From NCBI GenBank assembly GCA_947631475.1, contig CANRLI010000001.1:1-57696 (forward strand): a DNA stretch of 57,696 bases, written 5' to 3'. Below are positions 48,450 to 52,732 of the stretch, piece after piece. Origin of the DNA: an uncultured Bacilli bacterium (GTDB taxonomy: Bacteria > Bacillota_I > Bacilli_A > RF39 > UBA660). Positions within the stretch are counted from its first letter, which is position 1. Each line of letters opens with the position of its first letter. A program made the translations under genes and the position numbers. The notes beneath the pieces were generated by a model, which worked only from the letters and a program-made list of their open reading frames with translations, made no database searches and was not told the origin of the DNA.

Positions 48450-50309
48450 CTATAGTTTAAAATCTTCGAGGAATGATTTTACTAATTTGTCGGTACGTTT
48501 TTGTATTTTATCGATAGTCCAACTATCTTGTTTAACTACGTCTTCGTTTAACTTTAAACCATTTTTATAACCAATGTATTTATTTTTTTCTTGCCTATTT
48601 TTCTTTCTGTCAAATGACATATTAGATAGTTCTCCGTTGTATCCAGTAATGGTTAAGTTGCCAAAAGTATGAGCGTATTGGACTAAATATTGATCAGCTA
48701 ACTCTTTATTTCCATCAGCTATCATTTCAACCCAGCAATCAGGAATTTTTTCACCTTCAGGGAAAATATGTTCAATAGTCCAGATATATTTATTATTTTT
48801 ATCTCTACTCCACAAATCCGTGTATCTTTCTGTATTCATATACTTTTCTTCATAATAACATAAGATAAATCTTGTAGCTTCTGGATTATCCTCATACACA
48901 TTTCCTCTTAATGCTTTTTCAAAAGTATCATCATCAGATGAATTCTTTTTCAAATACTCAGTAAGAATATTATATATTTCTTGACCTTTTTTATCTTTTA
49001 TATTAGATATTGCATCCATAAATATCTTTGTTAAATTTCTAGTATTAGGAAAATCAGTTAAATTTCTTCTAACAAAATATTTTGTTAAAAAATTTATTAC
49101 ATCAGCTACTATTTCATCTGTTATTTGTAAATCTTTTTTATTTCTTAATAAATAAAGTAATAAGATATAAGATGGTGCTCCACCAATTCGAGATAAATTA
49201 AGTAAAGGTTTCTCTAAAGTAACATTGAAATTTTTTTCAGTTGTATTATTAATTAGTAAAGCATAATTTTGAGCATCAATTTTAATACGATTTAAAAATG
49301 TATTATAATTTTTTTCGATAAGTTGAGAATAAATATTTAATAAGGTTGATTTGGTAGCTAAGGAACCTAGAGGATACTTAGTTTTGGTGTCAATAATAAA
49401 ATCTTTATTTAGTTCATCACGATATGTGTTGTAATATTGTCTAAAGAATCTTTCTTGATCAGAATATTCATCTCCTAAATAAGAAATAATGCTTTTCCAT
49501 TCATCATAACAATCGCTAGCTTTACCGTCGGCATCGGCAACTCTAATAAGTAAATTTTTAATTAAATCGATGGCAGATAATGGAACACCACGGTTATTTA
49601 AAGATTCAAATAACATATACGCATCTTTATTATTGTTTACTTCTATCGAAACAAGTATTGCTGAATTAAATAAGTCAGCTAAATTAAATAATTCGTCTAT
49701 TTTAAATTTGGTTAAATTTTCTTCTATTACTTTTTTCTCTTTAATTTTTTCATTAATATATAACTCAATGCTATTAATAAAGTAATTAAAAGCTTTATAT
49801 ATTCGGCGATTACCAGCATTATTTTTCTTCTCACAACTTTTTAGAAGGCCACACTCATACAATAAACTATTATAATCGTATTGGTTTTCTTTTTGAATTT
49901 GTAAAGTAAGACGTGGCGTATTAATATATTCGCCTTCTTCATTTTTGTTTTTATATATTAATTCATTCATTATGTTAACGTATGCTGCTGTTTGTTCATC
50001 ATTAAAATAAGTTTTAAATTCTTTTAGTTTAGTATATATAGCAAGTAACAAAATAGATAGTGTCGTAATTCTTTGTTGACCATCGATAACTTCTAAAATT
50101 ATATCATTATATGTTCCTTTACTAACATTAACAGTGATTATTGAACCTAAAAAATATTCTCTATCATTATCAACAACATCATTAAATAATAATCCCCACT
50201 CTTTATTACTCCAAGTATATTCTCTTTGATATTTAGGTATTTTATATAAGTATTTTACGTTAATTGAAAAAATATCTGCAATCTTTAATGGTTTAGTACT
50301 TATTATCAT
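48450..50309 (-). CDS. DUF262 + DUF1524 protein (GmrSD-like type IV restriction / nuclease candidate)
   Basis: N-terminal IPKYQREYTWSNKEW and IDGQQRITT (DUF262, ParB-like NTPase). C-terminal WTIEHIFPEG ... HTFGNLTI (DUF1524 His-Me finger). Own extended -10 TGCTATAAT at 50331-50339. Confidence 0.75.
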   Translation of the reverse strand: MIISTKPLKIADIFSINVKYLYKIPKYQREYTWSNKEWGLLFNDVVDNDREYFLGSIITVNVSKGTYNDIILEVIDGQQRITTLSILLLAIYTKLKEFKTYFNDEQTAAYVNIMNELIYKNKNEEGEYINTPRLTLQIQKENQYDYNSLLYECGLLKSCEKKNNAGNRRIYKAFNYFINSIELYINEKIKEKKVIEENLTKFKIDELFNLADLFNSAILVSIEVNNNKDAYMLFESLNNRGVPLSAIDLIKNLLIRVADADGKASDCYDEWKSIISYLGDEYSDQERFFRQYYNTYRDELNKDFIIDTKTKYPLGSLATKSTLLNIYSQLIEKNYNTFLNRIKIDAQNYALLINNTTEKNFNVTLEKPLLNLSRIGGAPSYILLLYLLRNKKDLQITDEIVADVINFLTKYFVRRNLTDFPNTRNLTKIFMDAISNIKDKKGQEIYNILTEYLKKNSSDDDTFEKALRGNVYEDNPEATRFILCYYEEKYMNTERYTDLWSRDKNNKYIWTIEHIFPEGEKIPDCWVEMIADGNKELADQYLVQYAHTFGNLTITGYNGELSNMSFDRKKNRQEKNKYIGYKNGLKLNEDVVKQDSWTIDKIQKRTDKLVKSFLEDFKL

Positions 50310-50438: not shown

Positions 50439-51770
50439 TTATCTTTTTTTTACTAATTCTTTAGGCATTTCTTGGGCCATTTGGTAATTACTATAACGAC
50501 TGTCTTCCGTTACTTCTTTAATAGTTTTGATAAATTCAGGAATTCTTATAGTGGCGTTTTCATCGCTTAGTTCTATTTCCATTATGGCTTGATTAGACCA
50601 TTCTGGGTAAATATCAATCTCAAAGTATTGATTATCAATTGATAGACAGTATCTTGTTTTGTGAATAGTATGTAATTTATTATCAGCTGACATTAATAAA
50701 GATAAATACTCATTTTGCGTAAGTTTTCTTTCTATTTCAACTCTTTTAAGATTAGATATTCTTCGTTTTTCAGTTAAATAATATAGATAATTGCCATCGA
50801 TACCTCTAGCTCGTATTCTTCTTTCGGTTCCGTCTTGACTTTTTAAGTAAGTTTGAGAAATATCAACTTTAGTACAATTTGGCATTTTTTCTAATTGGTT
50901 AATATTTGGATAATAAATTAAAAATTTTCTTTCTATTTCATAAGGCTCTGGTTCACCTAAAAATGAAGCAATCTCTTTTAGTAATCTTTCTAGTTTTTCT
51001 TCGAAGTCAGTACTATTATCAATAATTCTAAAATGAGGATGACCGGTCCATGCCGCTATAATTTTATCATCAAGTTGGCAAGCCTCATCGATAGTTTCGG
51101 TTCTAGCAGTATTATTAGCAAGAGTATAAAATTCAGGTTTATCTTTAGCCGCGCTCACTAAATGAAAGATAGCATCATAAGAATCCCTTTCACGTACTTC
51201 GTTAGTATTGAACTCTTGTAAAACTCTTTTAAATTCAACATCTTTCATGTATGCTTTATTATCTAAAGTCCCACGATCACATACAATAAGAATTTTATCG
51301 CTTTTCATTTTTTGAGCAGCCTCATCAAATATTTGCTCTTTGACTTTTTGTAATTTCATTTGGGACATTTGAAAATCATATCTTGATTGACAAGTCCAAG
51401 GAGAAACTCCATTAGTAATTAACTCAGTAGCAGTTTCAGGGACTAGTAGGACTGTATAACCTCTTTTAGAAAAATAATTATTAATCCAAGTTAATGCCGT
51501 AGTTTTACCAGCACATGGTCCACCAGTCAAAACAATTTTACTAATTTTAATTTGGTTAGGGTTTTCTTGACTCGCTAATAGGTCATTTAAAGGAACATTA
51601 TATAAAGCTGATAGTAATTTTAGTTTATCTAAAGTAGGTTTTGATTTACCCATTTCCCATTTACTAACTGCTTTATCACTTACATCAAGTTGATAAGCAA
51701 CAAATCTTTGAGTTAAATTATTCTCCTTTCTAAGATTAAATAAATAATTACCAAAATCAATATTTTTCAT
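50439..51770 (-). CDS. three-domain fusion: XRE-type HTH + NadR-kinase-like P-loop (AAA_28-like) + CYTH triphosphate-tunnel domain
   Basis: HTH is LRKENNLTQRFVAYQLDVSDKAVSKWEMGKSKP. P-loop is VLTGGPCAGKTT, with CDRG downstream. The CYTH start is EIERKFLI, followed by RIRARG, TEKRR, VEIERK, KTRY, FEIDIY and MEIE strands. AAGGAG SD. Confidence 0.7.
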   Translation of the reverse strand: MKNIDFGNYLFNLRKENNLTQRFVAYQLDVSDKAVSKWEMGKSKPTLDKLKLLSALYNVPLNDLLASQENPNQIKISKIVLTGGPCAGKTTALTWINNYFSKRGYTVLLVPETATELITNGVSPWTCQSRYDFQMSQMKLQKVKEQIFDEAAQKMKSDKILIVCDRGTLDNKAYMKDVEFKRVLQEFNTNEVRERDSYDAIFHLVSAAKDKPEFYTLANNTARTETIDEACQLDDKIIAAWTGHPHFRIIDNSTDFEEKLERLLKEIASFLGEPEPYEIERKFLIYYPNINQLEKMPNCTKVDISQTYLKSQDGTERRIRARGIDGNYLYYLTEKRRISNLKRVEIERKLTQNEYLSLLMSADNKLHTIHKTRYCLSIDNQYFEIDIYPEWSNQAIMEIELSDENATIRIPEFIKTIKEVTEDSRYSNYQMAQEMPKELVKKR

Positions 51771-51900
51771 TTAAACTCTCCTTACAATTACATTATACAA
51801 TAAATATTTCTTAATGTTTGCAACCAATGCTCTACTTTCGGTAGAACTTTTTTATTAAAAAATAAGATTTTATAAATAAGATTTAAATATTCTTTAAAAA

Positions 51901-51943
51901 ATATAAAACTCCAATTCATCACTAAAGAATTAGAGTTTTATAT
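51901..51943. terminator. strong hairpin terminator (bidirectional in form) after the XRE-TM gene
   Basis: ATATAAAACTC-C-AATTC ... GAATT-A-GAGTTTTATAT, flanked by A-runs and T-runs on both sides. Confidence 0.7.
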
Positions 51944-51970: not shown

Positions 51971-52732
51971 TTATACATTTTCCCATAATAAAGTTTTATC
52001 TTTAATATTTATTAATTGTTCATCTTTCTCTTTTAATAGCTCATAGAAGTCTTCATTAACATAATAAATATGTTTTATTGCACTACAATCTAAGTTATTT
52101 GGCATATAGAGTCTGGTTTCTTGTGATTTAAAATCGATTAGCATACCATTACCGATTCTCATCATATGATTAGATGGATCATTTGATTTGAAAATTTTAT
52201 CTGCTAATGTTTGCGTAACATTTACATATAAATCATAAGTATTTTCATCTAGTTTAACTAACATAGCCAAACCATTACTATAATTTTTGAGATTTACTTT
52301 GATATATATGCCGTTATCTTGGGGAACTTCAACGTTGACAAGACCATCTTTATAATCTAGAGTAGTTTCTAATTTGAAGACAAAATGATAAATACCTAGG
52401 ATTAATACTATTAAAATTAAAGAGATGGATAAACCCGTAATAAATTTCTTTTTAGTTTTATTAATTTCTTTATTTGAGTATTCAATAGTATTTTTTAAAA
52501 CTTTTTCTACTTCATTTTTTGGCATTTTTTCTCCTTTTAATAAATCATATAGACTTATATCTAATATTTCTGTAAGTGGTATTAAAATAGAAATATCAGG
52601 AAAACACAAACCTCTTTCCCATTTTGAAATAGCCTTGTCTGTAACTAACAATTTTTTGGCTAAATCCTTTTGAGTAAGACTTTTTTGTTTGCGAGCTTCA
52701 CTAATAATTCTACCTGTTTTTTCTGGATCCAT
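51971..52732 (-). CDS. XRE-family HTH protein with a single TM helix and an extracytoplasmic C-terminal domain
   Basis: ARKQKSLTQKDLAKKLLVTDKAISKWERG HTH, TM helix GLSISLILIVLILGIYHFVF, and a ~130 aa C-terminal domain. TAAGGAGGA SD. Confidence 0.7.
   Translation of the reverse strand: MDPEKTGRIISEARKQKSLTQKDLAKKLLVTDKAISKWERGLCFPDISILIPLTEILDISLYDLLKGEKMPKNEVEKVLKNTIEYSNKEINKTKKKFITGLSISLILIVLILGIYHFVFKLETTLDYKDGLVNVEVPQDNGIYIKVNLKNYSNGLAMLVKLDENTYDLYVNVTQTLADKIFKSNDPSNHMMRIGNGMLIDFKSQETRLYMPNNLDCSAIKHIYYVNEDFYELLKEKDEQLINIKDKTLLWENV

Follow-up and report, generated by a model that had tools for sequence, protein, structure and literature searches.

An XRE helix-turn-helix, a P-loop kinase-like domain and a triphosphate tunnel in one bacterial protein: a probable autoregulated enzyme–regulator

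Introduction

What does a protein regulate that carries a DNA-binding head on a kinase-like domain and a triphosphate tunnel, and on which chemistry does it act? The question is raised by a gene encoding 443 amino acids in a 57,696-nucleotide stretch of DNA from an uncultured Bacilli bacterium (assembly GCA_947631475.1, contig CANRLI010000001.1, positions 1 to 57,696; hereafter, the window), where it lies beside a GmrSD-like gene. An initial annotation, made from the letters of the window, suggested that the product is a one-component regulator that makes, destroys or senses a nucleotide or phosphorylated metabolite. Triphosphate-tunnel (CYTH/TTM) enzymes occur in all domains of life; to our knowledge, the physiological substrates of most of the bacterial ones are unclear. 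Here, we conclude that the fusion is probably a self-contained, autoregulated enzyme–regulator, i.e., a “trigger enzyme.” We consider this reading the most likely one because a palindromic half-site upstream of the gene tracks the presence of the helix-turn-helix (HTH) among relatives and moves with the promoter.

Results

A palindrome at the promoter of the gene tracks the HTH

The gene, its DNA-binding head and its upstream region are laid out as follows.

50439 to 51770, minus strand: whole gene, HTH/P-loop kinase/TTM fusion, 443 amino acids, stop codon at 50439 to 50441
51567 to 51761, minus strand: XRE-type HTH, residues 4 to 68, five helices (Pfam HTH_3, HTH_19, AlphaFold model)
51830 to 51846, minus strand: candidate operator TTCTACCGAAAGTAGAG, TTCTAC-N5-GTAGAG, conserved and HTH-linked
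51776 to 51797, minus strand: core promoter and ribosome-binding site, read from the sequence and conserved in orthologues
51792 to 51797, minus strand: −10 element TATAAT, 32 nt after the operator
51776 to 51783, minus strand: Shine-Dalgarno sequence AAGGAGAG, followed by the ATG

The gene occupies a single minus-strand frame that starts with ATG in the open reading frame (ORF) list and its translation, and full-length homologues (52 to 83% identity) occur in over 100 clusters and at 65 loci that were retrieved. Several observations link the palindrome to the HTH. First, in an alignment of the regions upstream of HTH-bearing orthologues, an invariant palindrome, GTTCTACC(A/G)AAAGTAGAG, with the core TCTAC-N5-GTAGA (a perfect palindrome at 51831 to 51845 in the window), is embedded in AT-rich sequence that otherwise diverges, with genes farther upstream that vary by locus. 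The spacer and the flanking GTT...G are conserved at ≥0.9 compared to 0.53 to 0.62 for the surroundings; this profile was anchored on the exact palindrome, so that the arms reach 100% by construction and the non-anchored positions are the informative ones. Second, the exact palindrome is found within 300 nt upstream of the gene at 26 of 30 loci with the HTH and at 0 of 20 loci without it, and, with metagenome loci included, the half-site TCTAC[CT] is present at positions −115 to −50 at 45/63 HTH loci versus 0/59 HTH-less loci. Third, the element keeps its place relative to the promoter. TATAAT and the Shine-Dalgarno sequence are conserved in orthologues, and the gap between palindrome and −10 is 31 to 33 nt at all loci having the exact palindrome but L027, where it is 22 nt. 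A canonical −35 is not present at the fusion promoter, and a consensus promoter scan made no call there. Fourth, at L013 and L054, palindrome and promoter lie 73 nt ahead of a 278-residue coiled-coil gene that is inserted before the regulator; because this gene sits between promoter and regulator, the operator drives a two-gene unit at L013, L054 and L094. The inserted protein (L054:2335-3171, with its operator at L054:2260-2276; also present at L013 and L094) has a globular N terminus and a C-terminal coiled coil.

A more distant clade of HTH-bearing homologues (52 to 60% identity) has a related element in the same place, TTCTACC-N4-5-TTCGA(C/T)AG, together with systematic HTH differences that fall in helix 2 and on the opening residue of helix 3. 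At three loci (L024, L025 and L118), a TTCTACC-type element lies ahead of an energy-coupling factor (ECF) S-component gene that precedes the regulator; the element is absent ahead of the same S-component gene at the HTH-less locus L029.

The operator is the sole exact copy within the window. In the 1.1-Mb genome to which the window belongs, the extended motif has one further exact copy compared to ∼0.09 expected from base composition. Among the window's genome and five related ones, extra exact sites occur in 3/6, in unrelated contexts and with one of them intragenic, and one-mismatch sites are no commoner than those of a reversed-pattern control, so a wider regulon was not found in these genomes. 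As far as can be read from these patterns, the operator is essentially private to the fusion's own promoter. Most simply, the HTH would bind the palindrome and the protein would regulate its own transcription unit. The conserved operator ahead of the gene also supports the description of the protein as a one-component regulator tied to the chemistry of nucleotides or phosphates.

The further copy in the window's genome (L056:29-45, i.e., G000 contig C18:14716-14732) falls between genes, 118 nt ahead of an operon on the minus strand whose products are an exported protein of 133 residues, an ABC ATPase and an FtsX-like permease. A GTGACA-17-TATATT promoter directly adjoins this copy, with 22 nt to the −10 versus 32 nt at the regulator's promoter, and the site is not echoed in the five related genomes. 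About 700 nt from it is the gene for a 463-residue protein (L056:760-2151; G000 contig C18:15447-16838) that combines HD_4, a (p)ppGpp-hydrolase-type HD domain (E = 4e-18), with a second, weak AAA_28-like P-loop kinase domain (E = 1e-5) and is another enzyme fusion concerned with nucleotide chemistry. In the window, an AT-rich hairpin with a T-run (AAAACTC...GAGTTTT; 51895 to 51940, minus strand) stands just past the stop codon of the adjoining XRE gene. This hairpin probably insulates the regulator promoter from upstream transcription; a terminator scan made no call at this position, where there are too few G-C pairs.

The HTH and the order of the domains

The N-terminal HTH is matched by Pfam HTH_3 at residues 12 to 64 (E = 2.4e-12; 47 bits, cut-off 23), and a profile search matched the HTH to the structures of ICEBs1 ImmR, P22 C2 and SinR. 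The AlphaFold model of the 443-residue fusion, built on the alignment of a 30-sequence family profile, has a mean predicted local distance difference test (pLDDT) score of 86.9 and a predicted template modeling score (pTM) of 0.75, and places the HTH helices at residues 4 to 16, 21 to 27, 32 to 39, 47 to 56 and 61 to 68. With HTH_3 above its cut-off and a palindrome co-occurring at the promoter, the protein qualifies as an XRE (Cro/CI-type) regulator with predicted binding. The HTH is followed by GGPCAGKTT at residues 83 to 91 and EIERKFLI at residues 278 to 285. One polypeptide with an XRE HTH, a P-loop and a CYTH tunnel had been read here initially, and all three domains are confirmed: in the Pfam run, HTH_3 and AAA_28 were clear, and the CYTH call needed matches to the sequence and fold of NE1496 instead.

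The P-loop kinase-like domain and the question of NadR

The middle of the chain holds the following features.

50955 to 51548, minus strand: P-loop nucleoside/nucleotide-kinase-like domain, residues 75 to 272 (Pfam AAA_28, Foldseek, PHROG)
51498 to 51524, minus strand: Walker A motif GGPCAGKTT, inside the kinase-like domain

AAA_28 covers residues 78 to 259 with its entire profile (positions 1 to 164 of 164; E = 3.3e-27; 96.1 bits against a cut-off of 27). The motifs of the domain are Walker A, a Walker B-type DRG (D165, R166, G167), R223 and WTGHPH. In an alignment of 151 family representatives, K89, D165, R166, R223, Y198 and W241 are 95 to 99% conserved (K89 in 139/143, D165 in 144/149, R166 in 142/149, R223 in 143/144 and W241 in 145/149). 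The Foldseek neighbors of the domain are deoxycytidine kinase (dCK), thymidylate kinases and adenylate kinases (E ∼1e-5), and among the PHROGs, phrog_2107, “thymidylate kinase,” matches it at 3e-10.

AAA_28 is also the Pfam family that holds the kinase domain of NadR, and a resemblance to the ribosylnicotinamide kinase half of NadR had been proposed. The fusion might then be an NadR-type regulator of NAD salvage, in which AAA_28 is a ribosylnicotinamide kinase and the protein controls uptake and phosphorylation of nicotinamide riboside. The layout of an HTH followed by two nucleotide-handling domains fits this idea, as do a transporter of the PnuC type (PF04973), encoded two genes ahead of the fusion in the closely related contigs L050 and L026, and the NUDIX neighbors of one clade. 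The specific homology fails, however. In hhalign, the family profile aligns with Escherichia coli NadR over 29 columns at the Walker A motif (probability 46%), BLASTP against the same protein reaches E = 0.03 only, and the NadR structure 1LW7 is not among the PDB sequence, profile or fold matches of the fusion, to which dCK and thymidylate kinases are nearer by fold. Because 1LW7 was not recovered and those 29 columns alone align, the link between the fusion and NadR is common membership of the broad family AAA_28 and nothing more specific. Moreover, no nucleotidyltransferase family that could represent a nicotinamide mononucleotide (NMN) adenylyltransferase domain is among the Pfam and NCBIfam matches of the fusion, PnuC was not found in the window's genome (87% complete), no NAD genes lie near operator copies in the genomes searched, and the recurrent importer is an ECF S-component rather than PnuC. 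Altogether, we regard an NadR-type role as very unlikely.

The triphosphate tunnel retains its catalytic residues

The C-terminal part of the chain holds the following features.

50460 to 50945, minus strand: triphosphate tunnel (CYTH/TTM) domain, residues 276 to 437 (NE1496 matches, phrog_6660)
50925 to 50939, minus strand: ExExK motif, E278-I-E280-R-K282

Pfam CYTH (PF01928) matched neither the fusion nor its C-terminal 188 residues alone (E ≤ 10), nor did it match in the genome search. The CYTH call is nevertheless upheld by sequence, profile and fold. Residues 278 to 436 align to the whole of NE1496/NeuTTM, a specific inorganic triphosphatase from Nitrosomonas europaea (PDB 2FBL, 3TYP), in phmmer (E = 1.3e-7), and NE1496 matches the 30-sequence family profile at E = 4e-10. 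In a Foldseek search with the AlphaFold model, NE1496 is the best PDB match (E = 8e-10; template modeling [TM] score to target, 0.66), followed by the TTM proteins PH1012, YgiF, SaTTM and AtTTM3; phrog_6660 matches the domain at 5e-18. The model agrees with the eight-stranded beta-barrel of a tunnel fold, with strands at residues 278 to 286, 299 to 309, 316 to 324, 327 to 337, 342 to 350, 369 to 378, 381 to 387, 394 to 401 and 416 to 419 (pLDDT ∼85 to 94) and the C-terminal plug helix at 428 to 433. The E278-I-E280-R-K282 of the fusion aligns with the EIERK of NE1496, and the phmmer alignment pairs the residues of the two proteins as follows.

NeuTTM E4/E6/K8: fusion E278/E280/K282
NeuTTM Y28: fusion Y308
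NeuTTM R39/R41: fusion R318/R320
NeuTTM K52: fusion K335
NeuTTM K85/R87: fusion K371/R373

Tyr-28 and Lys-52 form the catalytic dyad of NeuTTM (PMC3440374). The acidic pairs E384/D386 and E398/E400 are present as well, and all catalytic residues of NE1496 are kept in the window's protein.

Across the family, the tunnel and its metal site are conserved to different degrees. R318, R320, R322, K335, K371, R373, E384, D386, E398 and E400 are each 81 to 99% conserved among the representatives, and conservation of the tunnel's Arg, Lys and Tyr residues across the 151 is 91 to 99%, whereas the metal-binding ExExK triad is intact in just 105/149. Because of this difference, the whole family looks able to bind a triphosphate-like ligand, and hydrolysis is probably retained in ∼70% of the members, including the window's protein. 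An HTH-less subclade from Clostridia (L041 to L047; e.g., L041:6037-7122) lacks the ExExK glutamates and retains the tunnel Arg and Lys residues, with DIKRR in most members, EGIRK in L044 and AVDRK in L047; this pattern suggests a tunnel that is noncatalytic and ligand binding, as in plant TTM1.

The same numbers bear on an alternative in which the tunnel is mainly a sensor, the protein is a transcription factor that reads inorganic triphosphate (PPPi), polyphosphate (polyP) or a triphosphorylated metabolite, and the kinase is an ATP-dependent switch, a role put forward for plant TTM1. The well-conserved Arg, Lys and Tyr residues beside a frequently broken ExExK, the replacement of EIERK by DIKRR in one subclade, the precedent of AtTTM1, whose inactive tunnel plugs its kinase (PMC9582702), and a match of the whole tandem to the fold of 7Z67 are all in line with it. 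However, the window's protein and its close relatives have all catalytic residues of NE1496, making hydrolysis the simpler expectation, and most family members have no DNA-binding domain. We therefore consider the sensor alternative unlikely.

The fusion family is widespread and patchily distributed

That the architecture might prove widespread, as an already characterized NadR variant with an NAD regulon, had been foreseen; it is widespread, and it is not such a variant. A word-indexed search that scored 8,000 candidates yielded at least 7,595 clusters at 90% identity, the best 120 of which are full-length at 77 to 83% identity, and an exhaustive search yielded at least 1,452 clusters at 50% identity (E ≤ 1e-30). 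Most of the latter are ∼360 residues long and align from residue 75 on, i.e., they represent kinase and tunnel without the HTH. The HTH-less form makes up ∼90% of the family representatives. Because just 13/151 representatives carry the N-terminal region, the kinase–TTM core would be an older two-domain enzyme and the HTH an add-on. A quick tree of the core, from which 13 representatives with <300 core residues were left out, was poorly supported and forced at least two changes in the HTH; some of the long “HTH” rows in it may carry other N-terminal domains.

In named genomes, the HTH form occurs in metagenome-assembled genomes of uncultured gut and rumen Bacilli or Erysipelotrichaceae, and the HTH-less form mostly in Clostridia. 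Within the genus of the window's organism, 13 of 26 other species have a match, two with an HTH-bearing orthologue (72% and 67% identity) and eleven with the HTH-less form (31 to 37%). Outside the genus, 1 of 10 genomes of the same family has a match, and none was found in 24 genomes from other families of the class; on the Clostridia side, the full core is present in just 2 of 401 sampled species. Phage records hold stand-alone CYTH genes only; the kinase–tunnel fusion was not found on phages, and one plasmid/chromid record carries the core, annotated as “AAA family ATPase” in RefSeq. Given this patchy distribution, the gene is sporadic, horizontally mobile and accessory rather than housekeeping.

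Some Clostridia genomes also have the halves as separate genes, i.e., a stand-alone tunnel of 182 to 193 residues (E = 1e-38 to 1e-47 against the family profile) and a stand-alone kinase of 198 residues (E = 1e-32). Stand-alone halves at G142:C21:123924-124415, G346:C22:43074-43553 and G131:C1:8681-9238 are very similar to the fusion.

The neighboring genes of the window are not conserved beside the fusion

The fusion gene lies between a GmrSD-like gene and a second XRE gene, as the initial annotation described.

48450 to 50309: GmrSD-like gene (GmrSD_N, 1e-34; GmrSD_C, 4e-17)
51971 to 52732: second XRE protein (XRE-TM), adjoining the fusion gene

From this placement, control of the neighboring accessory genes or immunity based on a nucleotide signal had been thought conceivable. 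Neither was borne out, because the neighbors are not conserved, the operator appears private, and PADLOC recognizes the HTH only. PcfJ, DUF1003, XRE-TM, MFS, DUF7192 and the AAA_5 ATPase of the window are beside none of the fusion homologues examined. GmrSD is near only one or two of 65 HTH-form loci, namely L015, where the homologue is 55% identical and lies upstream instead of downstream, and L014, where the match is weak. De novo clustering of neighbors and a Pfam tally of 90 flanking genes found no dominant partner family; the mix includes conflict or mobile genes (ResIII/DEAD, AbiEii, RhuM and AEP-TOTE) and NUDIX. No model in PADLOC-DB 2.0 matches kinase or tunnel, with HTH-level matches only. 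The GmrSD gene has a promoter-like site of its own, TTTACT-18-TATAAT with TG; no terminator was detected between the two genes, and transcription may read through from the fusion gene into the GmrSD gene. In the window, the fusion gene is a solo accessory unit and no component of the adjacent GmrSD system.

These data also allow an evaluation of a defense role. The fusion could be a single-gene conflict or defense module whose core uses up or converts a nucleotide, or produces or degrades a nucleotide signal, upon phage attack; the HTH would keep expression low until then, and the protein may cooperate with the adjacent GmrSD-type nuclease. This idea draws on the patchy accessory distribution and on the position of the gene in a mosaic island beside GmrSD, together with the GmrSD homologue near L015, the stand-alone CYTH genes of phages and, among the neighbors of orthologues, Abi_2, AbiEii, ResIII/DEAD helicases, RhuM, AEP-TOTE and integrases. 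Set against these points, no PADLOC model covers kinase or tunnel, no partner is conserved, with GmrSD near one or two of the 65 HTH-form loci and arranged differently there, the GmrSD gene has a promoter of its own, the fusion is not phage-borne, with the core in one plasmid/chromid record, and some HTH-less relatives are located among housekeeping genes and accompanied by importer and NUDIX genes. On balance, a defense function is decidedly unlikely.

Partner genes in more distant relatives point to salvage or housecleaning

The sole partner that recurs across clades is an ECF S-component (177 residues; PF07155, E = 3e-13), which lies within 300 nt of the gene at 8 of 129 loci, four times upstream and four times downstream, in copies that are 46 to 62% identical. 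By clade, it accompanies 6/33 Clostridia-type HTH loci, 2/60 HTH-less loci and 0/32 loci of the window's own clade. In a search for its ligand, the S-component scored below the NCBIfam folate and riboflavin family cut-offs and had no PDB relative. At an HTH-less Clostridia locus (L175:6394-9351), the genes for the S-component, the kinase–TTM protein, an alpha/beta-hydrolase (Hydrolase_4) and a NUDIX hydrolase follow each other in that order, the last three 0 to 10 nt apart, and the trio of kinase–TTM, alpha/beta-hydrolase and NUDIX genes recurs at five related loci, including L028, L033, L036 and L037.

The S-component operon and the NUDIX and alpha/beta-hydrolase neighbors suggest a role in uptake and phosphorylation, or in housecleaning, of a nucleoside- or vitamin-like compound. 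Because the S-component is absent from the window's clade and genome, this salvage reading is an extrapolation from distant relatives. In its logic, such a role would parallel NadR with PnuC, with other components.

In the window's own clade, the sole recurrent partner is a 183-residue ORF, which is absent from the window and its genome. At most of nine loci (L003:1846-2394, L001, where it is the second gene downstream, L006, L007, L010, L014, L015, L017 and L097), it follows the regulator on the same strand after 5 to 89 nt. Neither this ORF nor the 278-residue one has an identity in Pfam, NCBIfam, PADLOC or PHROG beyond coiled-coil noise, and none of S-component, PnuC and partner ORFs was found in the window's genome, with its completeness of 87%. 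A riboswitch search of 16 loci, aimed at a ligand for the HTH-less forms, returned only a T-box and tRNAs, unrelated to the gene.

Discussion

The findings favor a model in which the fusion is an enzyme that sets its own expression. The XRE HTH, probably as a dimer, would bind TTCTAC-N5-GTAGAG, the center of which is ∼40 nt upstream of the gene's own −10, and its occupancy of the palindrome would set transcription of the fusion's own gene. Behind the HTH, the core joins what is predicted to be a P-loop phosphotransferase with a nucleoside/nucleotide-kinase fold to a tunnel that has kept the full set of residues with which inorganic triphosphate or a triphosphorylated metabolite would be hydrolyzed in an Mg-dependent reaction. 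The ligand state of this core would be relayed to the HTH, and, if plant TTM1 is a guide, the tunnel may act as a gate on the kinase. In some relatives, the gene appears to be part of one operator-controlled operon with an ECF-type S-component or lies beside NUDIX and alpha/beta-hydrolase genes; accordingly, the family is likely to act in salvage or housecleaning, with an imported nucleoside- or vitamin-like compound as its target.

Several points weigh against this model. We infer binding of the palindrome by the fusion's own HTH from their co-occurrence alone. In the 52 to 60% identity clade, the element departs from clean palindromic symmetry, which would be unexpected if a symmetric dimer binds it. 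The operator is centered upstream of the −35 region of a promoter without a good −35, a placement compatible with both repression and activation. On the metabolic side, the search for riboswitches and pathway genes yielded nothing that names a substrate, and the S-component link is missing where the window's clade (0/32) and genome are concerned. Finally, conflict or mobile genes make up many of the neighbors in the window's clade.

A widespread family of gut bacteria, with at least 1,452 clusters and thousands of variants in gut metagenomes, joins a tunnel to a kinase, and no study of it was found. In its HTH branch, the 17-bp operator and the promoter should report the ligand state of the core, so that the question of the substrate becomes approachable. 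For annotation, the fusion gene is not to be counted in the GmrSD defense locus.

Several characterized systems resemble the fusion in part. The tunnel is closest to NeuTTM/NE1496 (and CthTTM), with which it shares ExExK, the Tyr-Lys dyad, the tunnel Arg and Lys residues, the acidic strand residues and the plug helix. NeuTTM, however, is a stand-alone enzyme of 150 residues, whereas the tunnel of the fusion is the tail of a three-domain protein and its activity is predicted.

For the kinase–TTM core, plant TTM1/2 are the closest characterized analogue and not a demonstrated orthologue. As in the fusion, AtTTM1/2 have an N-terminal P-loop domain of the nucleoside-kinase fold followed directly by a C-terminal tunnel in one chain, and in Foldseek the Arabidopsis TTM1 kinase–TTM module 7Z67 ranks fifth (E = 3e-8; 381 columns). 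Sequence identity is 12%, the root mean square deviation is 21 Å and the TM score is 0.24 to 0.27, with the two domains placed differently. The plant kinase is of the uridine-cytidine-kinase (UCK) type, whereas that of the fusion belongs to AAA_28 with no PRK/UCK family among its matches; the plant proteins are anchored to the membrane at the C terminus and lack an HTH, whereas the fusion sequence shows no hydrophobic tail; and the AtTTM1 tunnel is catalytically dead, whereas that of the fusion retains all catalytic residues. The kinase–TTM fusion has been called unique to plants, with the inactive AtTTM1 tunnel proposed to plug and regulate the kinase (PMC9582702). Our literature searches found no publication on a bacterial kinase–TTM fusion, and the large bacterial analogue described here corrects the literature in this respect. 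It is an unlikely extension that the bacterial family is the counterpart of the plant module, in which a triphosphate-sensing tunnel would gate a small-molecule kinase. In the HTH branch, this switch would then act on DNA itself, as a transcription factor that responds to PPPi, polyP or a triphosphorylated metabolite and controls both uptake and phosphorylation of an imported compound.

NadR of Enterobacteria and Haemophilus likewise combines a DNA-binding head with two nucleotide-handling domains, both kinases belong to AAA_28, and some relatives of the fusion appear to control a cognate importer on an NadR-like principle. Unlike NadR, which consists of an HTH, an NMN adenylyltransferase and a ribosylnicotinamide kinase, the fusion lacks the adenylyltransferase and has a TTM as its third domain. 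Its kinase sits in the middle of the chain rather than at the C terminus, its operator differs from that of NadR, and neither NAD genes nor PnuC accompany it in the window's genome.

In its overall logic, the fusion recalls BirA and PutA, enzyme–repressor fusions, or “trigger enzymes,” whose ligand or catalytic state sets their own DNA binding and the expression of their operons. Their folds and chemistry are unrelated to those of the fusion; what the fusion would share with them is the coupling of an enzyme to DNA, here read from its conserved operator and intact core.

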